The position numbers were made by a program, and so were the translations under genes. A stretch of DNA of 56,001 nucleotides from a virus (Duplodnaviria > Caudoviricetes): IMG/VR virus record IMGVR_UViG_3300043413_000021, positions 1-56,001 of that record; one strand, written 5' to 3'. Positions 4,874-46,450 of this stretch are shown piece after piece; the first letter of the stretch is position 1, and each line of letters begins with the position of its first letter. The notes under the pieces were generated by a model that saw only the letters and a program-made list of their open reading frames with translations, was not told where the DNA came from and did not search any database.

Positions 4874-5311
4874 ATGAAAGAGAAAATAAAAGGTATTGTA
4901 TTTGATTTTAAAAGTATTGGGTGGAGTTTTCAGCGAGTAGAAAAAGAACTAGGGTTTTCAAATGGAAGTATTGGCAAAGTTATTTTAGGTAAGTCTGGTA
5001 TATCTGAATTTAGATTTTTGCAGTTGGAAGAACTTTATAAAAAGCACTTCCCTGAAAAATTTACTATTAGTGAAGAAGTGAATAATTTGCCAGAAAATGA
5101 TGAAATTGAAAATATTGGTTTTAGAGCAGAACCCCCAAAAACGGAAATAATGAATAAGCAATGGTTTATTAATAATGCCCCAGATAGATACGAAGCACCA
5201 TATAAAATAGCAGACTTTAGAAAACTAATAAAAGAAAGCTATATCCTATCAAAAAAAGAATCCACCGAACTAATAGCAGCACTAGATAATGGACTTCTTT
5301 TTAAAGATTAA
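4874..5311 (+). CDS. XRE/Cro-like HTH DNA-binding protein (likely start MKEKI at 4874)
   Basis: WSFQRVEKELGFSNGSIGKVILGK fits an HTH_3-type pattern. Confidence 0.55.
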   Translation: MKEKIKGIVFDFKSIGWSFQRVEKELGFSNGSIGKVILGKSGISEFRFLQLEELYKKHFPEKFTISEEVNNLPENDEIENIGFRAEPPKTEIMNKQWFINNAPDRYEAPYKIADFRKLIKESYILSKKESTELIAALDNGLLFKD

Positions 5312-5389
5312 AATTACCTTAAAAATTCACATTATGTTGAAAACTACCAATAAAAATTATAATCTTTGCTTTGTTTATAAAACTAGATA

Positions 5390-5794
5390 ATGGCAGTATT
5401 AAATAAATTCAGTAATTCCATACTTGTTAATAAGTACAAGATTGCGAAGGAAACATTGGACTTGTTAGTGAATGAACTAAACAAGAGAGGCATACCAGTT
5501 GATAGTGTTAGTAATATCGTAGAAGTAAACCCTAGTGATGTATTTGCGTTACTGCCTGTTAAACGGCTAAGGAGTAGGGATAGAGATTATATGCAATCAC
5601 AGCACTTACTACGGTACATTCTATACCGTAGATGCAATATGACACTAAAAGAGATAGGCGTACAGACGGGTGGTTTTGACCATACAACTATAATAAATAG
5701 TATTAAGCGTGCGGGGCAGCTATTGGAAACAGACGATAGCTTTATATCTATGTACGAATCTGCTATCGATAAGCTAGGTAATCAAAAAAAATAA
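5390..5794 (+). CDS. Stand-alone DnaA C-terminal (domain IV) DNA-binding protein
   Basis: RSRDRDYMQSQHLLRYIL...MTLKEIGVQTGGFDHTTIINSIKR matches the DnaA domain IV signature (SLxEIG..FGGRDHTTV). Confidence 0.8.
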   Translation: MAVLNKFSNSILVNKYKIAKETLDLLVNELNKRGIPVDSVSNIVEVNPSDVFALLPVKRLRSRDRDYMQSQHLLRYILYRRCNMTLKEIGVQTGGFDHTTIINSIKRAGQLLETDDSFISMYESAIDKLGNQKK

Positions 5795-5831
5795 AAAAAT
5801 GAATCTAACAGGGGTCGCTAAAATGACCGAT

Positions 5832-5960
5832 AACGTCCCCGGCTTGCCGAAGTTGGTGAGTTCAAGGCTCAAATGCTCGGCAGCAAAATGTAAAAAAGAT
5901 GATTAGAAATATACAAACCATAGCGGATTCTACTGCACCAATTTTGGCAAACCCCATGTT
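5832..5960. repeat. attC-like hairpin A1
   Basis: AAC 5832; inner arms cttgccgaagttggtg / caccaattttggcaaa; GTT 5958. Confidence 0.8.
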
Positions 5961-6765
5961 GCCCGTTGGTGCGGTGAGTTTAAAACGCTTTATATCATTT
6001 AGCGGTGGCGTTGAAAGTACCACTATGTGTATTCTTTACGGTAAAGGTGCAACTGCTATATGGTGCGATACTGGTGCAGAACATGACGAAATGTACAAAA
6101 GAATTGATGATTGCGAAAAGGCATTAAAAGAAATTCATAAAGGCGATTTTGAATTGGTAAGATTAAAGGCTGATGTGAAAGTAAAAGGTAGTTGGGTTGA
6201 CAATTTAATTGATGCAATACTTGGATGGAAGTTTATGCCATCGCAGGGGCAAAGGTGGTGTACTGGTAAATTTAAAATCGCACCTATTGATAACTTTTTA
6301 AGTGAACAGGGCGAATGTGAGTTGCTTATTGGTTTGAACGCTGATGAAGAAACAAGGGAAGGGAATTGGGGATTAAAAGCCAATGTAAAATATGTTTATC
6401 AATTACAAGAAGATGGGCTTACCCGTGATGATTGTATTGAACTATTAAACCAATACGGGCTTAATCCTGACTTCCCGTTGTATATGAGCAGGGGTGGCTG
6501 CTTTATGTGTATTTACAAATCAATAGCAGAATATAAGGCTATGTACATTTTTGATAGAAAGACATTTGATAAAGTGTGGGCTATTGAGTTAAAAATACAA
6601 GACAAAAGGAAAAAATTATTTACCATATCTGTTAGCGGTAAGTCAATGACATGGATAGCGGCAGAGGTTGAAAGAGAGATACAAGGATGGGGTTTAGATT
6701 CGGTCAAAGGCTTTTACAAACAGATAGAACAAAAACAGGCTTGTGGTGCTTTCTGTCACAGGTAG
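5899..6765 (+). CDS. PAPS-reductase family (adenine-nucleotide alpha hydrolase) protein; cassette A1 cargo
   Basis: SFSGG PP-loop, DTGAE, RWCTGKFK, GLNADE and RGGCFMC motifs. Confidence 0.8.
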   Translation: MIRNIQTIADSTAPILANPMLPVGAVSLKRFISFSGGVESTTMCILYGKGATAIWCDTGAEHDEMYKRIDDCEKALKEIHKGDFELVRLKADVKVKGSWVDNLIDAILGWKFMPSQGQRWCTGKFKIAPIDNFLSEQGECELLIGLNADEETREGNWGLKANVKYVYQLQEDGLTRDDCIELLNQYGLNPDFPLYMSRGGCFMCIYKSIAEYKAMYIFDRKTFDKVWAIELKIQDKRKKLFTISVSGKSMTWIAAEVEREIQGWGLDSVKGFYKQIEQKQACGAFCHR

Positions 6766-6775
6766 CATGACGGGC

Positions 6776-6899
6776 AACGGTTTCGGGCTTTGCGAAGTGG
6801 CGGTTTTGAAAAATGTCAGCTTCAATATAGCACTGCTGTTCAATAGAATTACAAGGGTTCAAATTAGCACTTCACCCGCCATTTTGCAAAGCAAGTGTT
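6776..6899. repeat. attC-like hairpin A2
   Basis: AAC 6776; inner arms gctttgcgaagtggcgg / ccgccattttgcaaagc; GTT 6897. Confidence 0.8.
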
Positions 6900-6951
6900 A
6901 GCGGTTCGGGCTTCTCCGATTTTAGAAGTTCACAAATTAAATAACAAAAAA

Positions 6952-7449
6952 ATGTCAGAAACATTAACAGTAACTCGCCCGACTTGGAACGAAGAAATGC
7001 TAAAAGAACTTGCTCAAATCGTAGGTAAGCAAGTAAACGAATGGTGCAACGATGAAACACCGTTAGAAGATTGTATTGAAACAGCCGAAAAAGTGCTACA
7101 ATGGCACAGCAATGACAACGGATATGAACTTGCGAAAGAGTTTGATGATGAAGGTTTTTCACCCGATAGCGAACTGGTTGAAATTCTTGATAGTGTTTCT
7201 TATGATAGAAGTAAGGTTCAAGAAACATTTATTAAAAAATGGGTTGCTGATAATAACCTAAAACTTGAATTAGTTGAAGGTCAAAAAGTGATTGCAAAAC
7301 TTGTTCGTAAAGGCGAAGTTGAGGGTGAAATAGTAAAATTATATCCTGAAACTATGCAGTATGGTTTTTGGCACGAAGGTCAAGGATGCGAAAAAGGGGA
7401 AGGTCATACTTATGTCAATTTTGAAAACGTGGTGTCTGTCATAGCCTGA
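6952..7449 (+). CDS. Hypothetical acidic protein; cassette A2 cargo (ATG 6952, or GTG 6895 inside the attC arm)
   Basis: The ORF fills the cassette and has an A-rich leader before MSETL. Confidence 0.65.
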   Translation: MSETLTVTRPTWNEEMLKELAQIVGKQVNEWCNDETPLEDCIETAEKVLQWHSNDNGYELAKEFDDEGFSPDSELVEILDSVSYDRSKVQETFIKKWVADNNLKLELVEGQKVIAKLVRKGEVEGEIVKLYPETMQYGFWHEGQGCEKGEGHTYVNFENVVSVIA

Positions 7450-7454
7450 CCGAT

Positions 7455-7572
7455 AACGTTTTCGGGCTTGGTGAAGTAGCTAAACCCGAAGCTAAATAGA
7501 ATTACTAAGATTTAAAATTAAGAACGAATGATTGATATGATTACTAAACAGCCATTTTGCCAAACCAGTGTT
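7455..7572. repeat. attC-like hairpin A3
   Basis: AAC 7455; inner arms cttggtgaagtagct / agccattttgccaaa; GTT 7570. Confidence 0.75.
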
Positions 7573-7848
7573 AGTGGCAGTTATTATTTGGTTAGATATT
7601 GTGGTGGCTCGTATGATGACTATTATAGTGCTGTGGTTTTTGTTACCAATAAAAAATCAACTGCAACCAAATATTGCACTAAGTTTAATAAATTGCTTAA
7701 AAAATGGAAGAACCACTACAAGCAATTTGAAGCAGATAAATTTGGAATGAAATGGATTGCAGATGAACACATTGAAAAACACTTTGATAGGTGGAATAGT
7801 CTTGAAAATATAACCAAATGCTATTACGAAGAAGTGTCGTTTAGGTAA
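7528..7848 (+). CDS. Hypothetical protein; cassette A3 cargo (starts inside the hairpin loop)
   Basis: The ORF ends at the cassette's 3' arm. Confidence 0.6.
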   Translation: MIDMITKQPFCQTSVSGSYYLVRYCGGSYDDYYSAVVFVTNKKSTATKYCTKFNKLLKKWKNHYKQFEADKFGMKWIADEHIEKHFDRWNSLENITKCYYEEVSFR

Positions 7849-7856
7849 TTGCTACT

Positions 7857-7952
7857 AACGTTTTCGGGCTTGGTGTCTGTTATTTTGCCTTGCAGACACT
7901 TTAAGTTTACTACAAATTTAATAGGCAAAACAATAAGCACCAAACCGCTGTT
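7857..7952. repeat. attC-like hairpin A4 (close relative of B2)
   Basis: AAC 7857; inner arms cttggtgtctgttattttgcct / aggcaaaacaataagcaccaaa; GTT 7950. Confidence 0.85.
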
Positions 7953-7980
7953 AGTGGCTGGTGCGGTAAATTGAACTAAA

Positions 7981-8187
7981 ATGAGTAAAAAATTAAAAGC
8001 ATTAGCCTTAAGTTTTTTAGGCTGTATTATTTGGAGCGGACTTGTTTATATAGCAATAGCATTTTTGAAATCAGAATTAAACCCATTTATTTGGTCGCAA
8101 TTCACAAGAGGTGTAATGTTGTTTGTAATATCTTGCTATGTAGCATTTATTCCAGCAATAGTATTTGCTTTGAAAAACGAAATGTAG
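7981..8187 (+). CDS. Small two-TM membrane protein; cassette A4 cargo
   Basis: Two hydrophobic stretches in 68 aa. Confidence 0.6.
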   Translation: MSKKLKALALSFLGCIIWSGLVYIAIAFLKSELNPFIWSQFTRGVMLFVISCYVAFIPAIVFALKNEM

Positions 8188-8213
8188 CATCGCCACTAAC
8201 CGCACAAAAATAG

Positions 8214-8608
8214 ACACACACGATACAGATAGTTTTTCACAACTTAAAATAGTAACAATGGGAGTATTTTTTAAAGGGGGGCACATTAGCGGAAATTTCT
8301 GCAATATTACAAAAAGAAAACCTAAGGATTGGATTTATAATGGGTACAAAATAATTGTGCCTTACAAATTCAAGTGGAGGCATAAAATCGGTAAAGTTGA
8401 ATGCAATTGTAAAGTTTGCGAAGAACACTATCAGCCATGGTACGGCACAAGCTGGTTTCATTCTAAGGATTGCGCCCTGATGGAATACATTAATGCCCGC
8501 CCACAGATCTGTAACCTTGCGCAATATTACGAGAAAGATTTATCGCTAATCGCTCAAACTGACGAGTGTTAAGATTAACCACACACACGATACAGATAGT
8601 TTTTCACA
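8214..8608 (+). repeat. 28-bp perfect direct repeat (8214-8241 and 8581-8608) flanking ORF 8258-8572
   Basis: acacacacgatacagatagtttttcaca occurs twice. Confidence 0.9.
8258..8572 (+). CDS. Hypothetical Cys/His-rich protein (CNCKVC...H...C)
   Basis: ORF track; possible Zn-binding motif. Confidence 0.55.
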   Translation: MGVFFKGGHISGNFCNITKRKPKDWIYNGYKIIVPYKFKWRHKIGKVECNCKVCEEHYQPWYGTSWFHSKDCALMEYINARPQICNLAQYYEKDLSLIAQTDEC

Positions 8609-8798
8609 TTAATTCCATTTCAAGTTCATCTTGTGTAAGTGGGGTGCAATCTAACTTTATTATCATTTCATTTATGTTTAATAGTAAAGTACAATCGGGC
8701 ATTTTTTGTTGTTGTTTCGGTGGCAAATCTAGTTCATTACATAAACGTAAATATAATTGTTCATAGCTTTTTCTTCGGTTGTGTTTATTAGTTGTCAT
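8604..8798 (-). CDS. Hypothetical protein
   Basis: ATG with an A-rich leader; divergent from 8868. Confidence 0.4.
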   Translation of the reverse strand: MTTNKHNRRKSYEQLYLRLCNELDLPPKQQQKMPDCTLLLNINEMIIKLDCTPLTQDELEMELM

Positions 8799-8867
8799 AT
8801 TTTGTAATTAATGTTGCTAAAATAATTATTTTTAATCGGATTAAATTTATAATTAAAAGTTAAAAAA

Positions 8868-9059
8868 ATGATACAAAAAGTAGTTAAAAAAATTTGTGTA
8901 AACTTTGCGGAGTACATTGTAGTGAATGGATGGTCAGTAACGGATGGGTTTAAATGGATAAGACTATCCCATATACAAGATGCTCCAATAACTACTGAAG
9001 AACTTTTTGAACTTTTTAACAAAGAAGAAAGAAAAAGAATAAAAAAAGAAGTACCTTAG
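8868..9059 (+). CDS. Hypothetical protein
   Basis: ATG after an A-rich leader. Confidence 0.5.
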   Translation: MIQKVVKKICVNFAEYIVVNGWSVTDGFKWIRLSHIQDAPITTEELFELFNKEERKRIKKEVP

Positions 9060-9215
9060 CACTATATTAGTTTTCTGAATGAAGGGAGTCTTTCAGAGAA
9101 TTTAATGGTTGTATCAACCAGCCCCTCTTTGTCAACTCCCGATAAATTGGGGCATTTTTTTATAATAAAACAAAATTTAATTTAATAAAAAAATATTTGT
9201 TTTAAATAATTTAAT

Positions 9216-9223
9216 TAAGTTTG
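9216..9223 (+). promoter_or_regulatory. Bacteroidota promoter TAAGTTTG (with upstream TTTG at 9196)
   Basis: Consensus match about 20 bp upstream of the HTH gene. Confidence 0.55.
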
Positions 9224-9243
9224 TAATCCATAAAAATAAAAAT

Positions 9244-9444
9244 ATGAGTAAGATAAAAAAAGTAGATAATCTAAGACAGATTATTGATGAAGCTTTAGAT
9301 GGTAGAACTTATAAATGGTTGTGTGAAAAAACTGGCATCCATTCCACCCAAATGTCGTATATAGTTAATGGATTAAAGCCTAGTAAGAATAATCTATCTA
9401 AAATAGTTAAAGTATTAAAATTAGACCCTTCCTTGTTGGAATAG
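9244..9444 (+). CDS. Cro/XRE-family HTH regulator
   Basis: 66 aa; RTYKWLCEKTGIHSTQMSYIVNGLKPS is a typical HTH_3 pattern. Confidence 0.75.
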   Translation: MSKIKKVDNLRQIIDEALDGRTYKWLCEKTGIHSTQMSYIVNGLKPSKNNLSKIVKVLKLDPSLLE

Positions 9445-9458
9445 AGGTCTTTTTTTTT
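9423..9458 (+). terminator. Terminator-like hairpin after the HTH gene
   Basis: agacc...ggtct followed by a T-tract. Confidence 0.4.
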
Positions 9459-9824
9459 CTAAATAGGGTTCGTTATCAATTCCTACCCCGCTTTAGTTTT
9501 CAGATTTAAAAAGCAAATAGTTGAATTTTGTTACATATCCATATATATAAATCAAAAAGTGTTGGCAATGTTGTCCCCTTATAACCAACGACCTAAAAGA
9601 TTTAATAAAAAACCAGATTTTAATACTCGTTAGGATAGGCGAAGGAAAGGATAAGGTAGCAATGAAAAAGGGCATCTGAATTAACAAACACCCTTTTTAC
9701 CCCTAAAAGATAAGTAGATTACTACTTTGATAAAAAACATTATATCAAAGATAAGGAATAAACATAATCTTTTAGGGATAGAAAGGGGGTATTGTGTATA
9801 AAATAACAAAAAATAACAAAAAAA

Positions 9825-10160
9825 ATGGCAAAAAAATTAAAAAAAACTCCCGAATTGCCTTTTAAAAGTGAAAATTTTGAAATAATATGGAAAGAATATA
9901 TTACTCATAGGAGAGAGAAAGGAGCATCAAACTATACTCCAACTGGCTTAAATAGGGTGTTTAACGCTCTAATTAGGGATAGTTTAAATTCAGAAGAAGT
10001 TGCTATAAAAATAATAGAGCAGTCATTGGAAAAAAATTGGACAGGACTTTTCCCACTTAAAAATAATATAAAACATGGACAAACAACCACAACTTATTGG
10101 CAGCGTATTGGAATCGGAGGGATTAATATTGAAGGGAGTGCAAAAGAATCTCCGTTATAG
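9825..10160 (+). CDS. Replication-initiator-like protein (C-terminal-type domain only)
   Basis: FEIIWKEYITHRREKG..YTPTG...IIEQSLEKNWTGLFPLK resembles the C-terminus of phage replisome organisers; lies directly upstream of the DnaC-like ATPase. Confidence 0.5.
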   Translation: MAKKLKKTPELPFKSENFEIIWKEYITHRREKGASNYTPTGLNRVFNALIRDSLNSEEVAIKIIEQSLEKNWTGLFPLKNNIKHGQTTTTYWQRIGIGGINIEGSAKESPL

Positions 10161-10944
10161 TGAATGGGATTGGGTTGAGCTTACGGAAGATGAAAAAATA
10201 GATGCACTAGGGTATAGGCGTATGCTTAAGGGTACAGACCTTAAAAAAAGGCAAAAGGAAGAATACAATAGGCTTAAAATAGCGAAGCTTCAATCTCAAT
10301 GGACTTATGATGAATTAAGGGCTGAAATACTAAGTAGGGCTTTATCTGAACCATTTGAATTTGTAATAGATGAACATAATGAAAGGATAATACACCTTCT
10401 TTGTCTTTACTTTTCGGGGGATGAAAGGTTTAATAGTGAAAAAATAACATACCATAATGGGGAAGAAAGAAGCCTAAATTTAAGTAAGGGTATTGGTCTA
10501 ATATCTTCAAAAAAGGGTACTGGGAAGTCAATTTTAATGAAGTTATTTCAGCAAAACAAAAGAAGCCCATATCTAAAAATAGACACTAAGGATATTGCAT
10601 CCGAGTATAAAAAGAAAGGGGATGCTTGTATTGAAACATACTCAAACTTACTTTATATCCCACCTAATCCAACATTTTTTTGTTTCCAAAAAATAGGCAT
10701 TTGCTTTGACGAATTGGGGTATGAACTACCTAAAAATAACTGGGGAGATAAGTCCGATGTAATGGCAGATGTTCTATTTAATGTGTATAAGCAAAATCAA
10801 TATAGCGGGGATTATAGCAACTTTCATTTTACAAGTAACCTTTCAGGTCAAGACTTTGAAGGAAGATACGGGGATAGAATAAAAGATAGAATGAGAGAAA
10901 TGTTTAATGTTATTATTGTTTCAGGCGATAGTAGAAGAAAGTAA
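10075..10944 (+). CDS. DnaC/IstB-like P-loop ATPase (helicase-loader-like)
   Basis: Walker A KGTGKS, Walker B ICFDELG, FTSNL and YGDRIKDRMREMFN. Confidence 0.75.
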   Translation: MDKQPQLIGSVLESEGLILKGVQKNLRYSEWDWVELTEDEKIDALGYRRMLKGTDLKKRQKEEYNRLKIAKLQSQWTYDELRAEILSRALSEPFEFVIDEHNERIIHLLCLYFSGDERFNSEKITYHNGEERSLNLSKGIGLISSKKGTGKSILMKLFQQNKRSPYLKIDTKDIASEYKKKGDACIETYSNLLYIPPNPTFFCFQKIGICFDELGYELPKNNWGDKSDVMADVLFNVYKQNQYSGDYSNFHFTSNLSGQDFEGRYGDRIKDRMREMFNVIIVSGDSRRK

Positions 10945-10955
10945 AATAAAATAAA

Positions 10956-11141
10956 ATGAAAAACGAATATAAAGTAGGAACTAAAAAATGTACTAGGTGC
11001 AAGAAAAATGTAGATGTTAATAGGTTCTACAAAAAAATAAGTTCATCTGATGGGCTAAGTTACCATTGTTTTGATTGTGAAAAAATAATGAAAAAAGAAA
11101 GAAGAATAAAAATGATGGAGGGTATAATAATAGCTTTTTAA
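10956..11141 (+). CDS. Small zinc-ribbon protein
   Basis: CTRC...F...DGL..HCFDC. Confidence 0.55.
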   Translation: MKNEYKVGTKKCTRCKKNVDVNRFYKKISSSDGLSYHCFDCEKIMKKERRIKMMEGIIIAF

Positions 11142-11191
11142 GGTAATTTTAATTTAGTATTTCAGAAAATATATTAAACTTTGCAATACTT

Positions 11192-11452
11192 ATGTTTGGT
11201 TTCAAAAAAGCAAAAAATATGAATTTAAGGGAACAGTTAGAAAAATTCATTTCATTATTTGGGTATAAAAGATGTTTCATGTGGGATGATATGATTACTT
11301 ATAAAATAGTTCATAGTTTATCAAAAGAAGTAATAAGGCAAGCAGAAGAAATAATACAAGATTACAATTTATATTTACTTGAAGTTCAAGTATTGGAAGG
11401 TAGTTCCGTTTTTTCTGAAATGCTAATTATTAGACAAAAAATATCTTACTAA
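11192..11452 (+). CDS. Hypothetical protein
   Basis: ORF track; lies in an operon. Confidence 0.5.
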   Translation: MFGFKKAKNMNLREQLEKFISLFGYKRCFMWDDMITYKIVHSLSKEVIRQAEEIIQDYNLYLLEVQVLEGSSVFSEMLIIRQKISY

Positions 11453-11454
11453 AA

Positions 11455-11964
11455 ATGTACAATAGCACTATAATATCCAAAAAAAAGAAACTTTTATGTG
11501 GTTGTTTTGATTACAATTTCAGTAAGGGAAGGTGTAAGATGCACGCTACAATAGAAAGCGCAAATAAAAGAATCGAAAAGCAAAAACAAATATCAACGGT
11601 TACCGTAAAAACGAAAGTTCAAGATACTGAACCAAAAGAAATGCAGCAATTTTGGGAGTATGCCAAAAAAGTTATAGAACAAAAACCTTATTGTTGGGAG
11701 TGTGGAGATTTTATTTCTCCAAAAGATTATAGGGCTTCCACTGCCCACATATTTCCCAAATCAATATTTCCTTCAATAGCATCCAATAAATATAATTTCC
11801 TAGTACTTGGTAATAGATGCGGATGCCATAACCAAAGCCATAGATTAGATACATTTAGTAAAATGAGAATATTTCCCACCGCAATAAATAGATTTATGAA
11901 ATTCGCAGAAGAAATAAAAGAAAACCACAAATACAAAAATACTTTTATTGAATTATTAAAATGA
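11455..11964 (+). CDS. NinG/HNH-like endonuclease
   Basis: CWECG...AHIFPKS...N...CGCHN beta-beta-alpha-Me pattern. Confidence 0.6.
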   Translation: MYNSTIISKKKKLLCGCFDYNFSKGRCKMHATIESANKRIEKQKQISTVTVKTKVQDTEPKEMQQFWEYAKKVIEQKPYCWECGDFISPKDYRASTAHIFPKSIFPSIASNKYNFLVLGNRCGCHNQSHRLDTFSKMRIFPTAINRFMKFAEEIKENHKYKNTFIELLK

Positions 11965-12050
11965 AAAAAATCAAATAACGTAAAGATCGGAATGGCACAA
12001 AACCCCATGTTACCTTCTGCCTTATTTGGTCGGACACAAACAAAAATAAT

Positions 12051-12803
12051 ATGGCTAAAAAGTCAAACATACAATGGACGGATGCAACTTGGAATATCGC
12101 CAGAGGTTGCACAAAAGTAGATGAAGATTGCAAATTCTGTTATATGTATAGGGATAGTTTTGATAATACAAGGTATAACCCTTTGCAAGTAACAAAGACA
12201 AAAACAGTTTTCAATTTGCCTTTGAAAATTAAAGAACCTTCAAAGATTTTCACTTCATCATTAACCGATGTATTTCACCCCGATTGCGATGCTTTCAGAA
12301 ATGAAATGTGGGATATTATTCGTAAATGCCCACAGCATACTTTTCAGCTACTTACAAAAAGACCTGAAAGAATTATAGATAATACTCCATCTGATTTATT
12401 ACAAGCTGATAACATTTGGTTTGGAACAAGTGTAGGAAGTGAAAAAGGCAAACAAAGAATTTACGATTTATTGAAAGTTGATTGCAAAACTCGTTTTATT
12501 TCCTTTGAACCTTTACACGAAAGAGTAGATATGAATTTGGATTTACTCGACTTGCTTAAAATTCATTGGGCAATTATTGGTGGTGAAAGTGGCAATGAAA
12601 CTGGTAAATATCGTTACAGACCTTGTAAGGTTGAATGGATGGAGGAACTTGTAAAAGACCTTACTGCAACCACAGCAATATTTGTCAAACAGATGGGAAC
12701 TCATTTAGCAAAGGAGTTAAATATGTCTGATAGGCACGGTGGCAACATTGATGAATTTCCGTCCACCTTGAAAATCAGGGAGTTTCCCAAAGGTAGCAGG
12801 TAA
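12051..12803 (+). CDS. DUF5131 (phage Gp37/Gp68) radical-SAM-like protein; cassette B1 cargo
   Basis: IQWTDATWN, GCTKVDEDCKFCY, SLTDVFH, FQLLTKRPER, SFEPL, IIGGESG and FVKQMG. Confidence 0.9.
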   Translation: MAKKSNIQWTDATWNIARGCTKVDEDCKFCYMYRDSFDNTRYNPLQVTKTKTVFNLPLKIKEPSKIFTSSLTDVFHPDCDAFRNEMWDIIRKCPQHTFQLLTKRPERIIDNTPSDLLQADNIWFGTSVGSEKGKQRIYDLLKVDCKTRFISFEPLHERVDMNLDLLDLLKIHWAIIGGESGNETGKYRYRPCKVEWMEELVKDLTATTAIFVKQMGTHLAKELNMSDRHGGNIDEFPSTLKIREFPKGSR

Positions 12804-12896
12804 CGGTTTGCGGCTTGGTGTCTGTTATTTTGCCTTGCAGACATTTCAAGCCTTAGATAAAATTTATAGGCAAAATAATAGCACCAAACCGCTGTT
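12802..12896. repeat. attC-like hairpin B2 (close relative of A4)
   Basis: Inner arms cttggtgtctgttattttgcct / aggcaaaataatagcaccaaa. Confidence 0.85.
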
Positions 12897-12924
12897 AGTG
12901 GCTGGTGCGGTAAATTAAACGAAA

Positions 12925-13194
12925 ATGACAAACGAAGAACAAATTAAAGAGCCTAAAGATGATTGGAAATTAAAATCACTTACGATTGAATTTAAAAAGG
13001 GATTTTCATTTGAAAACTCACAAGACAGATACGAGGGAAGTATTAAGTTTGAAAATGGAGAGAGTGAAAGTTTCCAATTCAAAGTAAGACCCGATATGGC
13101 TGATGACTATATTAAACTGATAAGCGAAGATATTGTTAAGTGTGCCGAATCTTTAGGCTCTCGATTGATAGAGTCTTTAGGATTACGGAAGTAG
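12925..13194 (+). CDS. Hypothetical protein; cassette B2 cargo
   Basis: The ORF fills the cassette from leader to 3' arm. Confidence 0.65.
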   Translation: MTNEEQIKEPKDDWKLKSLTIEFKKGFSFENSQDRYEGSIKFENGESESFQFKVRPDMADDYIKLISEDIVKCAESLGSRLIESLGLRK

Positions 13195-13205
13195 CACTTG
13201 CCACT

Positions 13206-13324
13206 AACGGTAGCGGTTTATGCAGGTGGGAATTGATGCACTTCCATTCGCAAACAACCGATGCCGAATAGAATTAATTAGTTGAGCATTTAGCGTCCAG
13301 CCCACTTGAATAAACCGCCTTGTT
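13206..13324. repeat. attC-like hairpin B3
   Basis: Inner arms gcggtttatgcaggtggg / cccacttgaataaaccgc. Confidence 0.8.
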
Positions 13325-13351
13325 GGCTGCTGTACGGTAAAAAATGCCAAG

Positions 13352-13389
13352 TTCTACTTTTTGTCAGTAGTTAATCAAGTTAAACAACC
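13352..13389 (+). repeat. 38-bp leader element, copy 1 (35/38 identical to 15254-15291)
   Basis: ttctactttttgtcagtagttaatcaagttaaacaacc. Confidence 0.8.
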
Positions 13390-13418
13390 GTCATTTTTAA
13401 ACTGTCAAACAATAATTT

Positions 13419-13655
13419 ATGAATATACAACCGAAAGAAAAAGCGCAAGATTTATGGCTAACTTATTACGAGTTATTGCCAGATGGAATATACTCAAATG
13501 AAGCTGCTAAAATTGAGGCTAAAAAGTTTGCTACAATAGCTGTCAATGAAGTTTTGGAAGCTACTAAAGAAGCTGTGTTACCTATGGGCGGTGCTACTGG
13601 TTATGATTATGATAGCTACTGGTTAGATGTCAAGTCTGAAATTGAAAAGCTGTAG
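13419..13655 (+). CDS. Hypothetical protein; cassette B3 cargo
   Basis: PKEKAQDL...A.IAVNEVL...YWLDVKSEIEKL; the ORF ends at the 3' arm. Confidence 0.65.
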   Translation: MNIQPKEKAQDLWLTYYELLPDGIYSNEAAKIEAKKFATIAVNEVLEATKEAVLPMGGATGYDYDSYWLDVKSEIEKL

Positions 13656-13665
13656 TATAGCAGCC

Positions 13666-13743
13666 AACGGATTGGGTATTTACGCAGGTGGCTTTTGTGG
13701 GTTGGCTTGTGTGTCGGCAAGCCACTTGAGTAAATACCTTGTT
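13666..13743. repeat. attC-like hairpin B4
   Basis: Inner arms ggtatttacgcaggtggctt / aagccacttgagtaaatacc. Confidence 0.8.
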
Positions 13744-13788
13744 AGCCGTTCGTTCTTTTTCGATTACAATTTAAAAAAAATTAGTAAA

Positions 13789-14208
13789 ATGTCAAAAAAT
13801 ATAGATTTATTAAAGCAAAAATTAAATGCAAAAACTTCGGAAGAGTTGTTTGGTATTACAGAGCAACCTCCACAACAATGTCCAAACATTGATAATGTCA
13901 TTCGTGATTTAGAAGGCACTTGTAAGCAAATTCAAAGTATAGCAAATGATATAAAACGAACTGATAATATAGACGATATTCCAAGTTTAGCTGGCGATAT
14001 TGATTGGTATTCAAGTGATATTGATAAGTCAAAAGAGTTAAATGAGTTGAGAAAGCAAATTGAGTTAGTTCGTGGTTGGGGAGAAGAATGGAAAAATTTA
14101 GCAAAATCTTTATTCAATAATATGAGTAAAGAGCAAGATATAGTACACCATTTTTCAAGTGAGTTTCAAATTAAATATGACGAGTTATGCGGTGTCGTTT
14201 TAGAATGA
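13789..14208 (+). CDS. Hypothetical helical protein; cassette B4 cargo (likely start MSKNI at 13789)
   Basis: The track ORF starting at 13627 runs through the hairpin. The ATG at 13789 has an A-rich leader. Confidence 0.6.
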   Translation: MSKNIDLLKQKLNAKTSEELFGITEQPPQQCPNIDNVIRDLEGTCKQIQSIANDIKRTDNIDDIPSLAGDIDWYSSDIDKSKELNELRKQIELVRGWGEEWKNLAKSLFNNMSKEQDIVHHFSSEFQIKYDELCGVVLE

Positions 14209-14213
14209 CGGCT

Positions 14214-14339
14214 AACGTCCAGCGGCTTTGCGAAGGCAAGGGATTAGAAGCACTAAACTTTAAAATTAGTACAAATGATTGATAGAAATACAAATGTTCA
14301 AATAATCGGTGAAGCCCTTGCTTTTGCAAAACCGATGTT
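14214..14339. repeat. attC-like hairpin B5
   Basis: Inner arms ctttgcgaaggcaaggg / cccttgcttttgcaaaa. Confidence 0.8.
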
Positions 14340-14556
14340 AGCAGCCGTTTATGTTGCTACTTGGCAAGAAGAAGGTGATGAACCATATCAGATACGGTCA
14401 GACGAATGTAAACCAAAAGATAAAGCAGGTGATTCTGATTGGTGGTTTGATGAAGAAAGTCTAATGTTTAGAAGATATTGGTCGTACCACCATGAAGAAT
14501 ATGGAAATCAATATGTTCATGATGAAGTTGATGCAGTCTTATTAAATGGCTGCTAA
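14275..14556 (+). CDS. Hypothetical acidic protein; cassette B5 cargo (starts inside the hairpin loop)
   Basis: The stop TAA is the TAAC of the 3' arm. Confidence 0.6.
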   Translation: MIDRNTNVQIIGEALAFAKPMLAAVYVATWQEEGDEPYQIRSDECKPKDKAGDSDWWFDEESLMFRRYWSYHHEEYGNQYVHDEVDAVLLNGC

Positions 14557-14574
14557 CACTTAGATTGACGAAAT

Positions 14575-14830
14575 ATGGATATGCAATACATTGAAAAAGA
14601 GAAAGATAACTATCTACTAAAATTGAATGGGGAAGATTATTTTTTCTCAAAATTATCACTATACAAATCAACACGTTTTCTACCTATAAAACCAATTTTG
14701 AACAATGGATCTTTGTCTTGGAATATTGGTAGTGAACTACCCACCCACAGCAAAGCTGATGAGTGGGCTTTCGCTCCCTCTATGTAAAAAAATATCTTAC
14801 AAACAAATTAAAAATTTAATACTAAAATGA
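14575..14830 (+). pseudogene. Small gene interrupted by a 52-bp insertion
   Basis: Removing 14732-14783 restores ...WNIGSKKISYKQIKNLILK* with its TGA overlapping the ssb ATG (ATGA). Confidence 0.55.
14732..14783 (+). mobile_element. Miniature IS200/IS605-type end-hairpin remnant
   Basis: gtgaactacccacccacagcaaagctgatgagtgggctttcgctccctctat; GC-rich palindrome beginning GTGAACTACCC. Confidence 0.55.
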
Positions 14831-15252
14831 TAAAAACAGAAGTAATAGGTCATTTAGGAAATGATGCAGTAGTAAATAACGTTAACGGTAAAAGTGTAGT
14901 TAACTTTTCGGTAGCCCATACAGAAAAATATAAAGATTCAAATGGAGTGGAAACAACAAACACTATTTGGGTTTCATGTTCTTATTGGGCTGAAAGAATA
15001 GGTGTAGCAACTTATCTTAAAAGGGGTACACAAGTTTATGTTGAGGGGCAACCTTCGTTAAAAACATACGTGGATAATCAAAATAAAACACAAGCTCAAC
15101 TAAGCTTAAGAGTAAGAAACATACAATTACTTGGAGGGGCAAAACAAGAGCAGGTACAACCACAGCAAAATAATTATCCATCCAATCCACAAGATGTATT
15201 AACCGATAAACAAAAAGAGTTTTTAGAGCAAAAAGATGATTTGCCTTTTTAA
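14827..15252 (+). CDS. ssb: Single-stranded DNA-binding protein
   Basis: IGHLGNDA, FSVA, YLKRGTQVYVEG and the C-terminal DDLPF tail. Confidence 0.95.
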   Translation: MIKTEVIGHLGNDAVVNNVNGKSVVNFSVAHTEKYKDSNGVETTNTIWVSCSYWAERIGVATYLKRGTQVYVEGQPSLKTYVDNQNKTQAQLSLRVRNIQLLGGAKQEQVQPQQNNYPSNPQDVLTDKQKEFLEQKDDLPF

Positions 15253-15253
15253 A

Positions 15254-15291
15254 TTCTACTTTTTGTGGGTAGTTAATCAAGTCAAACAACC
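15254..15291 (+). repeat. 38-bp leader element, copy 2
   Basis: ttctactttttgtgggtagttaatcaagtcaaacaacc. Confidence 0.8.
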
Positions 15292-15323
15292 CTCAACCTT
15301 TTTTTAAAACAAAAAAAATAAAA

Positions 15324-15647
15324 ATGGCTAAACTATCTAAACCTGTAAATGATTGGGCTAGGTGCTTAATTATATTACATAGTAATTACATGGCTGGGGT
15401 ATCTATGGCAAAAGTGCTTAATGTACTCCCACATTTTTACAAGTTTCAAACAAGACTAAAGGAGGTTGAAAAAGCCCACCCTAAACTAAAAATATCAAGA
15501 ACTATAATACCTTTTAAAAATGCTAAATTAAATAAAAACGGTTACTTTACACAATACACACTACTAAGCCCACCATCATACGTTATTAACCTTTACAATA
15601 AAATAAATAAAGAGGGACTTTATGGAGAAAAAAAAGATAAAAAATGA
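15324..15647 (+). CDS. Hypothetical basic protein
   Basis: ORF track; A-rich leader. Confidence 0.55.
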   Translation: MAKLSKPVNDWARCLIILHSNYMAGVSMAKVLNVLPHFYKFQTRLKEVEKAHPKLKISRTIIPFKNAKLNKNGYFTQYTLLSPPSYVINLYNKINKEGLYGEKKDKK

Positions 15648-44543: not shown

Positions 44544-44546
44544 TAA

Positions 44547-45905
44547 ATGGCTAAGATAACAGACCCCGATTTATTAGTAGTAGGTACTGAACTTACTATT
44601 GATACAACAAATAAAACATTTACATTAAATAGTGCGGGCAATATGACCCCCAAAGACGGTGTAACATTGCAAGCACTGTACTCTAAGATGGTGGAGTTAT
44701 GGACAACATCCACGTATAATAAATACCCATTCCCAATTTATACCATAGACGCACGTTCTGGGCAATTCCAGATAGGAACGGATGGTAGTCTTTATAACGG
44801 ATGGAAGCCCGCTAATGATGCTACAAGACAAATGATTCGTGATGCTGGATGGAGTGAATATTCGGTAGCGGGAGTACTAAATAGACAGTACGTTGGTATT
44901 GTAGCACTAGCATCGGGATTCCCTAACGGCTCACAGTTTTATTATCAAAAGGCTTCTGGGGGTGCGGCTACATCATTCACTTATACAGATTCTCCCAATG
45001 AGGGCATTCAAGTATTTGGGGATGCATCAAACGGTAATTTCGATAACAGAACGTATTTTAAAATGTTTTGTCGTGAGGCGAATTATACCTATGACGATGC
45101 AGTTCTTAGCGATGTCGGTGAAACGGCAACAGGTGCATTTAAAGTATCGTTACCTATTGCGGTTAGTTCTGATTTAAAGATTCAGGCTAACGATGCAACA
45201 GTAGCAGCTAATACACCATATATGGGCATTACGGTGGAATATTTTGGCACAAACCAAAACAGAACGATTGGCGGTACTGCATACCCATTCAGGATTATCA
45301 TTAACGGTAATAACGCAACGGCAGAGCAGATTTATACTAAGGTTCAGTACTTACTAAGACAGGCGGGAGATATAGACAACGGTGCGGGTACGGTTGCGGG
45401 CAAAACGGCTAACTCATTACTATACTTCGTTGGTGATACGCTATACACAACTCAAGGCGTGTATATTGATAATTACCAAGCCAATGATATTAACAGATTG
45501 GTATTTACAGACCAGAACAGTGTGCAACGTACAGAGCCATATACAGCCACTGGCTCACTTGTATTTAACACTCCACTACAAGGTGCGGGCGGTTATTACA
45601 GGATGTACTTCACAGCACTACCAAGTGCGGGTGATGACTATGGTGAGGCGGGTGCGGTAACGGTGAACAATGCAGCAGCGGCATCTATATCGGGGGCGAT
45701 AAGTGCGGGTAGTATTCCGTTCACATTCGCCTATGACAGTAATGTACAGGGCGGTAGAACAGCGGCGACAGATGCAGCGGTTACGATTGTAGCGGGTAGA
45801 CCAGGCAGTGCCAAACCAGTGGTAGCAACATTCACTATAACAAGGTCTACAGGACAGTTAATATCATTAGTAGCGGAACAAGATAGGGCGTATGTAAATC
45901 CATAA
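44547..45905 (+). CDS. Structural protein (putative appendage component)
   Basis: 452 aa, T/G/A-rich. The N-terminal T.NKTFTL...TLQALYSKMVELW resembles the start of the next gene. Confidence 0.55.
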   Translation: MAKITDPDLLVVGTELTIDTTNKTFTLNSAGNMTPKDGVTLQALYSKMVELWTTSTYNKYPFPIYTIDARSGQFQIGTDGSLYNGWKPANDATRQMIRDAGWSEYSVAGVLNRQYVGIVALASGFPNGSQFYYQKASGGAATSFTYTDSPNEGIQVFGDASNGNFDNRTYFKMFCREANYTYDDAVLSDVGETATGAFKVSLPIAVSSDLKIQANDATVAANTPYMGITVEYFGTNQNRTIGGTAYPFRIIINGNNATAEQIYTKVQYLLRQAGDIDNGAGTVAGKTANSLLYFVGDTLYTTQGVYIDNYQANDINRLVFTDQNSVQRTEPYTATGSLVFNTPLQGAGGYYRMYFTALPSAGDDYGEAGAVTVNNAAAASISGAISAGSIPFTFAYDSNVQGGRTAATDAAVTIVAGRPGSAKPVVATFTITRSTGQLISLVAEQDRAYVNP

Positions 45906-45907
45906 TT

Positions 45908-46450
45908 ATGGGGTATAGTATTAGCGGAATAAATAAAATCATCTCACTAACAAGTGGTACTACACAAGTGTCGGTAAGAGATTTGTGGAGTAGATGGTAT
46001 GAATGGTATTTAACAAATGATAATTCTAAATACCCTATTGCATTCACGCAGGTAGGTGGTGATAGCATTGATGCAACAACGGCTATACCTATTTACATAT
46101 TCTTACAGAACGGTTGGAAAATCAAACCGCAGGAGGCTAATCATACACTAAGAGTATTTGACGGTATATTGGTAGTGGATGGAGGTGGCGACCCATTCGT
46201 AAACACAATAGGTTCGTATGTTGTAAGAATAAATTATTCACAGCCAGTACAGGCTATTACGGTGAGTAGTGGAGGTTCGGGAGGTGGATTAACATTAGAG
46301 CAGGATACTAAGCTAGACGAATTACATAAATTACAAGGTTTAGACCCTAATAATCCAATGACTGTAACGCAAAATGAAAGAACGGTTGGGGGTATTACCT
46401 TAGAAATAACAGGGGATGGGGATACTGAAACCATAGTAACAAGGATTTAA
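45908..46450 (+). CDS. Structural protein (putative), N-terminus similar to the 452-aa gene
   Basis: NKIISL...SVRDLWSRWYEW...KYPIAF...NGWK parallels the 452-aa protein. Confidence 0.5.
   Translation: MGYSISGINKIISLTSGTTQVSVRDLWSRWYEWYLTNDNSKYPIAFTQVGGDSIDATTAIPIYIFLQNGWKIKPQEANHTLRVFDGILVVDGGGDPFVNTIGSYVVRINYSQPVQAITVSSGGSGGGLTLEQDTKLDELHKLQGLDPNNPMTVTQNERTVGGITLEITGDGDTETIVTRI

Follow-up and report, generated by a model that had tools for sequence, protein, structure and literature searches.

Integron geometry is held to be fixed: the promoter and primary site lie upstream, each gene comes before its hairpin, and the non-coding strand recombines. The window analysed here, a 56,001-nt stretch that is the whole 56-kb record of a Flavobacterium-type phage, carries two integron-style cassette arrays (A and B) and raises the question of which gene each hairpin belongs to, which strand recombines, and at which end cassettes enter. 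We consider it probable that these are integron-type, CALIN-like arrays built on the attC family of the hosts with the genes flipped, that crossover falls between AA and C of the AAC triplet, and that entry is at the right end. A sequence-only reading had proposed such a mirror image of classical integrons, and its interpretation as a whole has been largely borne out.

Two cassette arrays in the window

The arrays contain eight complete hairpins, one truncated hairpin, and two ...AAC ends without a hairpin. A covariance model built from the hairpins recovered 8/8 complete ones, four in each array, with E values of 1e-9 to 1e-25 and exclusively on the plus strand. Array A has the following features.

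5823..5969, plus strand: hairpin A1, attC-like (C of AAC 5834, G of GTT 5958; model match 92.3 bits)
5899..6765, plus strand: cassette gene A1, PAPS-reductase-like protein (PF01507, E 1.1e-5; phrog_424, E 3.6e-32)
6767..6908, plus strand: hairpin A2 (C of AAC 6778, G of GTT 6897; 118.2 bits)
6952..7449, plus strand: cassette gene A2, no assigned function (ORF list; phrog_17597, E 8e-5)
7446..7581, plus strand: hairpin A3 (C of AAC 7457, G of GTT 7570; 96.4 bits)
7528..7848, plus strand: cassette gene A3, 106 aa (ORF list)
7848..7961, plus strand: hairpin A4 (C of AAC 7859, G of GTT 7950; 81.7 bits)
7981..8187, plus strand: cassette gene A4, 68 aa (ORF list)
8189..8200, plus strand: array A end, bare GCCACTAAC (AAC 8198-8200), complementary to GTTAGTGGC of A4; no hairpin beyond

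Across gene A1, GTTGCCCGT of hairpin A1 is complementary to ACGGGCAAC of hairpin A2. The right arm of A1 extends over the beginning of the PAPS-reductase-like ORF, which also has later in-frame starts at 5957 and 5968. Hairpin A3 is 90.6% identical to copies from Flavobacterium phage isolates. The ATG of gene A3 sits inside the A3 loop; this loop and the right arm encode the first ~18 residues, and the same N-terminus recurs on methyltransferases at other loci. Hairpin A4 is a near-copy of hairpin B2 (repeat families D2 and D5), and no Pfam family was found for gene A4. Array B is laid out as follows.

11971..12020, plus strand: truncated hairpin B1 (C of AAC 11979, G of GTT 12009)
12051..12803, plus strand: cassette gene B1, DUF5131 (PF07505, E 3.4e-53)
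12793..12905, plus strand: hairpin B2 (C of AAC 12804, G of GTT 12894; covariance model match)
12925..13194, plus strand: cassette gene B2, 89 aa (sequence comparison with locus L010 and a contig of run X2)
13197..13333, plus strand: hairpin B3 (C of AAC 13208, G of GTT 13322; 76.3 bits)
13419..13655, plus strand: cassette gene B3, 78 aa (ORF list)
13657..13752, plus strand: hairpin B4, short loop (C of AAC 13668, G of GTT 13741; 53.9 bits)
13789..14208, plus strand: cassette gene B4, 139 aa from the given ATG (ORF list)
14205..14348, plus strand: hairpin B5 (C of AAC 14216, G of GTT 14337; 120.9 bits)
14275..14556, plus strand: cassette gene B5, 93 aa (ORF list)
14546..14573, plus strand: array B end, bare GGCTGCTAAC (AAC 14555-14557); no hairpin beyond

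Hairpin B1 is regarded as truncated because merely 29 nt separate its AAC from its GTT and the stem is absent; AGGTAAC of B2 pairs with its GTTACCT. Gene B1 by itself is common to loci L001 and L002 (~90% nucleotide identity), and the surroundings differ. Hairpin B2 and its copy in L010 are near-identical from AAC onward, with the gene upstream just 72% identical; in the hairpin-interior comparison, the B2 interior was 100% identical. Gene B2 is the final cassette of an array in L010 and on the contig of run X2, which comes from another study and whose match to the window ends at 13208, the C of AAC. The ATG of gene B5 sits inside the loop of hairpin B5. The stretch after GGCTGCTAAC of array B agrees with the motif found past the ends of other arrays: T at +8, CG at +12/+13, and A at +14 to +16. 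As had been read from the letters, array A opens with a complete hairpin and array B with a truncated one, both finish at a bare AAC (8198-8200 and 14555-14557) with no hairpin after either, and all coordinates hold. In six frames of the window, whose record is ~80% complete, there was no match to the tyrosine recombinase family PF00589, nor, accordingly, the integrase gene adjoining a primary site that marks a complete integron; such a gene may lie in the missing part of the record. With at least two attC sites and no integrase nearby, the arrays fit the definition of a CALIN.

The hairpins are imperfect, their AAC and GTT triplets are conserved, and their inner arms are paired, as in attC sites. 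DNA folds of the arms only, summed over the eight hairpins, gave -136.3 kcal/mol for the plus strand and -119.0 kcal/mol for the minus strand, and the arms contain 19 G-T pairs on the plus strand and 8 on the minus strand. The plus strand folded better in 7/8 hairpins (the exception being A3), and also in 7/8 when full-length hairpins were folded. The G-T excess and better fold claimed for the plus (coding) strand are therefore real and modest. The structure exceeds chance by a wide margin: in 147 distinct copies from the related set, pairing involved 92% of cells compared with 79.6% in shuffles, and 244 cells had changed on both sides compared with 87.7 in shuffles, a number that 0/500 shuffles reached; all inner-arm pairs (7/7) showed both-side changes. 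Two observations on folding count against the integron reading: the differences in fold energy between strands are small (~2 kcal/mol), and the bulges of the plus strand are predicted on the AAC arm. According to an excerpt of Nivina 2016, the classical bottom strand carries its extrahelical bases on the arm opposite AAC.

Hairpin family and gene orientation in phages and hosts

The covariance model, run on related viral loci and Bacteroidota genome loci, found 314 hairpin copies in 146 viral loci and 156 in 80 bacterial loci. Viral hairpins lie on one strand per locus, with 1/314 of reversed polarity. In phages, the six bases 3' of GTT pair with the six before the AAC of the next hairpin, perfectly in 125/179 pairs and with a mean of 5.17 of 6, compared with ~3.0 within one hairpin and 2.84 for random pairs (perfect in 100/5000, ~2%). 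The corresponding six variable bases in bacteria pair perfectly across the gene in 67/89 pairs. Hence phages and bacteria both have the hybrid R box: the half-site that opens a cassette pairs with the half-site that opens the cassette's own hairpin.

In 167/179 phage pairs, the longest ORF between hairpins lies on the plus strand of the model (CM+); in 86/89 bacterial pairs, it lies on the minus strand. Host arrays thus have the gene before attC and a non-coding better-folding strand, as integrons do, and phage arrays have neither. This upholds the claim that the phage cassettes are inverted relative to classical integrons, for which ORF orientation in Bacteroidota chromosomes had been proposed as the check. 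The annotation of isolate mumin6-1 by its authors agrees with genes on the hairpin's plus strand in phages.

The same model matches Bacteroidota arrays (G050-G054) on the same strand as the phage hairpins. Their layout is ordinary (recombinase, bare GTT site, gene, hairpin), and host arrays of this family are very large, ~508 kb in one genome. Published integron surveys, in the portions at hand, record almost none in Bacteroidota. The non-coding strand of the host copies, which corresponds to the phage coding strand, folds better in 9/10. On this homology and predicted folding, the phage coding strand would be the equivalent of the bottom strand, as previously suggested, and in its folded form it may be the substrate of recombination.

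Across the family, cassette products are mostly for DNA modification: N6/N4 and C5 methyltransferases, PAPS-reductase-like proteins, and DUF5131. Because most cassettes encode such functions, the arrays resemble a reservoir in which anti-restriction genes are shuffled, and the cassettes may have an anti-restriction role.

Array ends, recombinase genes, and the proposed mobile unit

A bare, complementary ...AAC was present at 57/76 right ends of phage arrays, with 1.2 expected from shuffles, and a conserved motif lies 3' of it. The GTT counterpart was seen at 18/73 left ends only, most lying behind hairpin-like arms unseen by the model. An Xer/IntI-like recombinase ORF starts ~40 nt past the bare AAC in four related loci (L149, L147, L285, L281). 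All six relatives with 2.6 kb or more of DNA upstream have arrays on that side, and none has hairpins on the downstream side. Since the recombinase is on the same strand past the site, cassettes, site, and recombinase share one reading direction. The array-adjacent recombinases scored 133 and 178 bits against the NCBIfam integron-integrase cut-off of 265; in this group, the TIGR02249 match (133 bits, cut-off 265) fell in two stretches, and the top family was NF040815, 'tyrosine recombinase/integron integrase' (193.6 bits against 220). Their nearest solved chains are XerA, and the alignment with VchIntIA (IntI) is in two pieces. A tyrosine recombinase occurs in just 6/49 related viral records, and in 3/27 of those at least 90% complete. 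This scarcity, the lack of a recombinase match in the window and in the isolate family that has the indels, and the scores below cut-off also count against the integron reading. Among bacteria, a tyrosine recombinase lies past the same array end in 5/5 genomes checked, with a bare AAC read at that end in two of the five, and in 5/6 arrays it is encoded opposite to the plus strand of the hairpin.

Two natural indels between Flavobacterium phage isolates are exactly a hairpin plus its downstream gene, cut at AAC. The 506-nt difference between mumin6-1 and mumin6-4 consists of a leader and ORF with TAACGTT at its bounds, and the downstream hairpin is retained. Compared with snusmum9-1, snusmum6-1 has an extra hairpin, methyltransferase gene, and GTGTATAAC between the terminal ...CATAAC and the flank; the sequence shared at this insertion site is TAAC only (4 nt). 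The conserved motif and this insertion identify an attI-like primary site in the relatives, not in the window itself. Flank sharing also favoured the downstream side, by 15 to 0 in DNA and 17 to 1 in protein. Bare ends, indels, and flank sharing together agree with the earlier proposal of crossover at AAC with the hairpin and downstream gene as the unit, and the right-end insertion site is supported by the cassette gained exactly at the terminal ...AAC and by the recombinase beyond it. Counting against this are the pairs with similar hairpin interiors but no common flank (331/349 in DNA, 122/141 in protein), C5-methyltransferase cassettes, whose greater hairpin similarity was on the downstream side in 6/6 pairs, and some metagenome contigs that break at GTT (7569, 12886, 12893).

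Exchange of hairpin interiors independently of either neighbour would suit another explanation, which we consider improbable: that the hairpins lie between cistrons as regulatory stem-loops of RNA or DNA, serving as terminators, processing sites, or translation starts, and shuffle genes only by homologous or single-strand-annealing recombination that depends on the exonuclease and annealing protein of the phage itself, as T4-type promoter/stem-loop repeats do. The transcribed strand is indeed the better-folding one in phages, some loops include the start codon of the gene that follows, and YqaJ-type exonuclease and ERF-like genes are near the arrays. However, this explanation does not account for the cross-gene pairing of variable bases, the bare ...AAC ends, or the snusmum cassette gain at a TAAC-only site, and this strand is also the better-folding one of the host copies, although host gene transcripts do not include it.

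It is quite improbable that the indels arose by microhomology or replication slippage at the conserved motif TAACG(T), independently of any dedicated recombinase. The 7-nt repeat bounding the mumin indel fits such an origin, as does the absence of a tyrosine recombinase from most of these phages (the isolate family with indels scored 0 for it in its 38,527-nt record), but slippage gives no account of the covarying flanks, the conserved terminal site, or the recombinase genes right there, and the snusmum insertion shares 4 nt only.

Ordinary polarity on the plus strand, with the hairpin owned by the upstream gene, crossover between G and TT, and bare ends as decayed hairpins, is very unlikely and already disfavoured. 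It would require 57/76 arrays to be truncated at the identical base; moreover, recombinase genes are at the bare-AAC end in phages and bacteria alike, both isolate indels retain the downstream hairpin and gain or lose the upstream one, and flank sharing is downstream. Cross-gene pairing fits this polarity equally well, and the C5-methyltransferase hairpins and GTT breaks speak for it. That phage cassettes are host cassettes inserted backwards by top-strand recombination, which according to a passage of Nivina 2016 would invert a cassette relative to its array, is barely credible, as this route flips hairpin and gene together whereas here the gene alone is flipped, and hairpin polarity towards the bare end and recombinase is the same in phages and bacteria.

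In the integron-type reading, the mobile unit on the coding strand would be C, hairpin, GTTxxxxxx, gene, xxxxxxAA, with crossover between AA and C for both excision and insertion, and cassettes would enter downstream, at the right end of the array, where the site has no hairpin. Every gene is on the strand opposite to the host layout, so new cassettes seem to enter there. Cutting would be by a tyrosine recombinase, and an Xer/IntI-like one is encoded on the same strand ~40 nt beyond the entry site in some related phages; in the window phage, the enzyme would need to be supplied in trans, either by an integron of the host or by another phage infecting the same cell. We see an even chance that Bacteroidota phages carry widespread, undescribed mirror-image integron-like platforms in which cassette genes and any Xer-like recombinase read towards and through the primary site, the coding strand recombines, and anti-restriction genes are swapped between phages.

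Comparison with known systems

According to an excerpt of Nivina 2016, no cassette in the reverse orientation has ever been seen in a mobile or a chromosomal integron. The whole family of phage arrays shows this opposite geometry, yet it is built on the hosts' own hairpin family, and therefore gene-to-hairpin orientation is not dictated by recombination chemistry. The flipped arrays provide a natural system for the question of cassette origin, and suggest that phages maintain methyltransferase genes and others for DNA modification as a stock that can be exchanged. Because cultured Flavobacterium phages and their hosts have the system, bench experiments on it are feasible.

The phage arrays resemble classical integrons (IntI, attI, attC; class 1, Vibrio) in their imperfect hairpins bounded by ...AAC and GTT..., complementary flanks across cassettes, arrays running in a single direction, a primary site without a hairpin that lies at one end beside a tyrosine recombinase gene, and a better-folding strand that is the one with more G-T pairs. 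They differ in gene placement: the strand that carries the genes here is the non-coding one of classical and host arrays, so that each hairpin lies ahead of its gene, with the primary site downstream of the coding sequences. In addition, the recombinase of phage relatives is closer to XerA than to IntI and below IntI cut-offs, the predicted bulges are on the AAC arm, and the hairpins are 96-147 nt long. In Treponema denticola-type integrons, integrase and cassettes point the same way in the order integrase, site, cassettes; the single reading direction of all genes is as in the bacterial relatives here, whereas the phages run cassettes, site, recombinase. T4-type phages have promoter/stem-loop repeats that are thought to act via homologous recombination, and likewise have repeated stem-loops on either side of small accessory genes, within a part of the phage genome that is plastic, but we know of no covarying flanks or terminal half-site in them.

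CALINs of virulent phages (Qi et al. 2023, PMC9892861) are similar in being attC arrays on phages with no integrase and with methyltransferase cassettes, including those of a Bacteroidota phage, Polaribacter phage P12002L; according to excerpts of that paper, 5/6 tested phage sites were recombined by IntI1. Orientation is described there as typical or in 'divergent directions', unlike the family-wide flip reported here. The excerpts do not mention genes flipped across a whole family, a primary site on the downstream side, or a phage recombinase beyond such a site, and the word 'Flavobacterium' is absent from the main text. The Bacteroidota arrays G050-G054 share with the phage arrays the hairpin family, the flank pairing, and a bare ...AAC beside an Xer/IntI-like gene, and differ in carrying their genes on the other strand (86/89).

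Hairpins of the two arrays and their family

Re-reading of the sequence found every feature listed by the sequence-only reading at its place in arrays A and B, the two cassette arrays of the window. The hairpins are attC-like, running from an AAC arm to a GTT arm, and each array ends in a bare AAC.

Hairpins and terminal sites of arrays A and B
5823-5969, plus strand: hairpin A1, array A, complete
6767-6908, plus strand: hairpin A2, array A, complete
7446-7581, plus strand: hairpin A3, array A, complete
7848-7961, plus strand: hairpin A4, array A, complete
8198-8200, plus strand: AAC at the end of array A, bare GCCACTAAC
11971-12020, plus strand: truncated site B1, array B
12793-12905, plus strand: hairpin B2, array B, complete
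13197-13333, plus strand: hairpin B3, array B, complete
13657-13752, plus strand: hairpin B4, array B, complete
14205-14348, plus strand: hairpin B5, array B, complete
14555-14557, plus strand: AAC at the end of array B, bare GGCTGCTAAC

When the loops were replaced by a tetraloop, the plus strand folded better in seven of eight window hairpins (sums of −136.3 versus −119.0 kcal/mol). Folding of the native, full-length hairpins on both strands also favored the plus strand in seven of eight, with A3 as the exception. The tetraloop folds contained 19 G-T pairs on the plus strand versus 8 on the minus strand, in agreement with the earlier remark that stem imperfections are mostly G-T on the plus strand.

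A 19-letter degenerate pattern of the left arm matched viral and bacterial genome contigs, at least 120 of each kind; the viral and genome loci were picked by this pattern from the window and are thus biased to close relatives of its hairpins. Copies were located with a covariance model built from 13 hairpins, after exclusion of three aligned sequences of loci L003/L004 that turned out to be unrelated; it was used instead of an nhmmer arm search and two earlier hairpin scanners, which had missed known copies. The model found 314 copies (119 + 195) in the window and 145 viral loci, all but one on a single strand within each locus. The contig of locus L010, of which L073 is a repeat, was searched once. 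Across 147 distinct copies, 92% of cells were paired versus 79.6% in shuffles, and 244 cells were changed on both sides versus 87.7, a value reached by none of 500 shuffles; all seven inner-arm pairs covaried. In 145 of 146 copies, the G after AAC and the T before GTT pair with each other on the plus strand (alignment A4, columns 19/237). On the other strand, this pair is an A-C mismatch adjoining the presumed cut. The pattern further occurred in provirus-classed records and in viral records of very large size (110-430 kb), so the hairpin family is wider than ~37-kb siphoviruses.

The record (56,001 nt, linear) is ~80% complete according to CheckV, and nearly all long ORFs are on the plus strand. 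Its left part codes a YqaJ-type exonuclease, a DnaA-like HTH protein, a PAPS-reductase-like protein, and DUF5131. A six-frame search of the window detected no tyrosine recombinase, a tRNA scan found no tRNA genes, and the Rfam gathering scan gave 0 matches; the protein of ORF 5390-5794 had no relatives among viral contigs. Megablast of window 5000-15500 gave no match to GenBank phages. In a more sensitive search, the hairpins were the sole part of this region that matched, and the 40 matching records were all Flavobacterium phages (including vB_FspS_mumin, filifjonk, tooticki, and snusmum). Given these matches to cultured Flavobacterium phages, the host is very likely a Flavobacterium or a close relative. 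Immediately beyond array A, ORF 8258-8572 lies between the two copies of a perfect 28-nt direct repeat (8214-8241 and 8581-8608) and may represent another type of insertion; a related locus, L023, contains 8241-8562 at 75% identity. Hairpin B3 and the SSB-like gene are each followed by a copy of a 45-nt repeat (13349-13393 and 15251-15295, respectively; 89% identical), which could be a promoter or terminator module. G+C content was 0.42-0.45 at 42001-46000 and 54001-56000, within long plus-strand ORFs, versus ~0.32 elsewhere.

Units cut at AAC and the open end of the array

Two natural differences were found between cultured Flavobacterium phage isolates. Over the 930 nt aligned, mumin6-1 and mumin6-4 differ by a single 506-nt segment, which mumin6-4 lacks, and are otherwise identical. 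This segment opens at TAACGTT, continues with a hairpin-like leader and a single ORF, and stops at ...CTGTTGCA before the next TAACGTT, whereas the hairpin downstream of its ORF is retained in both isolates. mumin6-3 carries the same deletion as mumin6-4 and was rejected as a separate event. The array of snusmum9-1 ends with ...ATTGCATAAC followed by TACAATATTACATG..., and exactly between these two sequences snusmum6-1 has a hairpin, GTTATACAC, a methyltransferase ORF, and GTGTATAAC. Read from their sequences, both differences are units of a hairpin plus its downstream gene, cut at AAC, as had been proposed from the window. The snusmum unit is located at the terminal site of the array, which supports the proposal that insertion takes place at the right end. 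The indel-bearing isolates had no tyrosine recombinase (a 38,527-nt record scored 0), so the enzyme, if any, acted in trans. snusmum9-1 (L291) has ~230 extra nt in the hairpin region relative to snusmum6-1 (L290; alignment A7, columns 100-400), which look like a second hairpin together with a very short cassette that has no ORF and whose GTTATATGA and TCATATAAC flanks match.

Phage hairpin pairs were counted in 114 non-redundant loci with 310 hairpins and 179 consecutive pairs at most 3 kb apart, leaving out redundant loci L112 and L116 and the opposite-strand hit at L122 534-627. In 125 of the 179 pairs, the six bases after GTT of one hairpin were exactly complementary to the six before AAC of the next (mean, 5.17 of 6), versus a mean of ~3.0 within one hairpin and 2.84 for random pairs (100 of 5000 perfect). 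This cross-gene complementarity is a hybrid R box, the product of site-specific crossover inside the box. It fits crossover at AAC and at GTT equally, and the choice between them therefore rests on other evidence.

Array ends were examined for the same complementarity. A bare, exactly complementary ...AAC followed the last gene, without a hairpin behind it, at 57 of the 76 right ends with enough DNA, against 1.2 expected from shuffles. A complementary GTT... lay upstream of the array at 18 of 73 left ends, many of them directly behind typical right arms, and these are hairpins missed by the model. Past the 57 bare AACs, a conserved motif was recognizable, with T at +8 (49 ends), C at +12 (39), G at +13 (45), A at +15 (36), and A at +16 (34). 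The stretch resembles the left half-site, inverted, weaker, and set off by a 5-nt spacer, so that the whole may be a simple two-arm recombinase site. In the window, the end of array B fits this motif and that of array A fits poorly.

Breaks of similarity were also found at AAC. Locus L010 contains a B2 hairpin copy whose interior is 100% identical; the likeness to the window begins right after AAC, the adjoining DUF5131 gene is only 72% identical, and the array terminus is GCCACTAAC, the same as the left half of B3. Metagenome reads were compared at the contig level for the covered window parts. One contig, from a run of another study, matched 12794-13208 only and was unlike the window on both sides beyond; its right break, 13208, is the C of AAC. 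Further contigs broke just before or after AAC (6776, 7454, 12806) and at GTT (7569, 12886, 12893). A joint from 6800 to 7543 was set aside, its shorter side being 25 letters and lying between two homologous hairpins.

Among 349 hairpin pairs with interiors at least 85% identical, 331 shared neither flank, 15 the downstream flank only, 3 both, and none the upstream flank only. Protein-level comparison was complete for 141 of these pairs and incomplete for 208; in the complete ones, neither gene was shared in 122, the downstream only in 17, the upstream only in 1, and both in 1. Hairpins co-segregating with the upstream ORF, the alternative to ownership by the downstream gene, thus amounted to 0 (DNA) and 1 (protein) versus 15 and 17. 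For 347 pairs of homologous cassette genes from different loci, the more similar hairpin was the upstream one in 136 and the downstream one in 50, with 161 ties. One methyltransferase family made up 335 of these pairs; the remaining 12 split 4 (upstream) to 5 (downstream), and C5-methyltransferase pairs favored the downstream hairpin in six of six. By these counts, the link between a hairpin and its downstream gene is statistical, not strict, and hairpin interiors are often replaced or homogenised independently.

The commonest cassette gene encodes an N6/N4 methyltransferase (65 ORFs in 45 loci), whose first ~18 residues are encoded by the hairpin loop and right arm. The same N-terminal start occurs in unrelated window ORFs at 7528 and 14275. 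The loop supplies the ATG, and loop and right arm code a common MID.IT.QPFCQT.VSGS-like N-terminus (window 7528-7581 and 14275-14348, and many loci) on methyltransferases and unrelated small ORFs alike.

Recombinase genes and the proposed recombining strand

A tyrosine recombinase was encoded in 6 of 49 related viral records (3 of 27 among those at least 90% complete), and in three of the six its gene directly follows hairpins that share its strand. Loci L149 and L147 each have a methyltransferase cassette terminating in a bare TTGCCACTAAC or TTGCACATAAC, with the recombinase ORF beginning ~40-45 nt beyond; the junctions in L285 and L281 have the same reading as L149. Nine relatives of the L149 protein were retrieved, and all six with at least 2.6 kb of upstream DNA had 1 to 6 same-strand hairpins upstream and none downstream. 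The best NCBIfam model for the array-adjacent phage recombinases was NF040815, 'tyrosine recombinase/integron integrase' (193.6 bits; cut-off, 220), and the integron-integrase model TIGR02249 scored 133 bits (cut-off, 265) in two stretches. The nearest solved chains were XerA and then VchIntIA in two pieces. With scores below the cut-offs and XerA nearest, we name these putative enzymes Xer/IntI-like, not IntI.

Strand energies were compared for the 8 window hairpins and 10 hairpins from one genome of Flavobacterium qiangtangense. In the latter, the model plus strand (the strand on which the model reads AAC...GTT) is the non-coding strand, and it folded better in 9 of 10 (for example, −29.0/−25.8, −23.0/−19.8, and −26.5/−23.4 kcal/mol, plus versus minus). 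The available part of one study describes the classical bottom strand as richer in G:T mispairs (1.24 vs 0.39), lower in folding energy, and cut between A and C of AAC (Nivina 2016). Homology, array polarity, and predicted folding together suggest that the phage coding strand would be its counterpart; the earlier claim of a bottom-strand role for the coding strand is thus supported. One feature misfits: in the predicted folds the consistently unpaired bases are on the AAC arm (a 4-nt bulge after AACG, sometimes one base more), whereas the extrahelical bases of the classical bottom strand, as described there, are on the arm opposite AAC (Nivina 2016). Our guess is that these bulges are linked to an Xer-like recombinase that seems to be without the IntI-specific segment.

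Host arrays and gene orientation

In Bacteroidota genomes the model detected 156 hairpins, spread over 80 loci (Flavobacterium, Chryseobacterium, Pedobacter, Chitinophaga, and Cytophagales among them), and flank pairing was perfect in 67 of 89 consecutive pairs. Gene orientation between hairpins was taken as the strand of the longest ORF. It was on the model minus strand in 86 of the 89 bacterial pairs and on the plus strand in 2, versus the plus strand in 167 of 179 phage pairs; the inversion relative to the classical layout, first proposed from the window, thus holds against the Bacteroidota repeats. The authors' annotation of mumin6-1 agrees: its annotated genes, four methyltransferases among them, share their strand with 10 hairpins.

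Each of the five bacterial genomes examined had a tyrosine recombinase gene just past the plus-strand 3' end of an array. Of the six arrays, five had it on the strand opposite to the hairpin plus strand, whereas the array on contig G054:C48 (locus L193) had it on the plus strand, so both orientations occur in hosts. Behind its last gene, the F. qiangtangense array has a bare GCCTACAAC to which the last GTTGTAGGC is complementary; a truncated recombinase whose best model is integron integrase lies ~100 nt beyond. In another Bacteroidota chromosome, G050, an IS30-like insertion separates a bare ACTACTGCTAAC from the recombinase behind it. All 150 scored hairpins of G050 were on one strand at ~3,475,206-3,983,177 (~508 kb, ~12% of the genome), with sampled densities of 10 and 3 per 20 kb (loci L274, L275, L286, and L287), and the stretch terminates at a bare AAC near the Xer/IntI-like gene. 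It is far larger than Vibrio arrays.

Clusters of attC with methyltransferase cassettes have been reported in virulent phages, including Polaribacter phage P12002L, and IntI1 recombined 5 of 6 tested phage attC sites (Qi et al. 2023, PMC9892861). In the text available to us, that article mentions no flipped genes, downstream primary site, or phage recombinase behind such a site, and 'Flavobacterium' does not appear in its main text. For Bacteroidetes, the part consulted of Néron 2022 describes nothing but integrase-only elements, joined later by a single complete integron, that of Salinibacter ruber. The literature searched, itself seen in part, held no description of the flipped-gene arrangement, which could be published beyond it.

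Had host cassettes simply been inserted backwards, gene and hairpin would both have been flipped; since the phage hairpins keep the host polarity and the genes alone are flipped, this route is ruled out. On their coding strand, the host arrays have the ordinary integron order of recombinase, bare GTT site, gene, and hairpin. In the phage arrays the polarity of the hairpins towards the open end is kept, but the genes are flipped.
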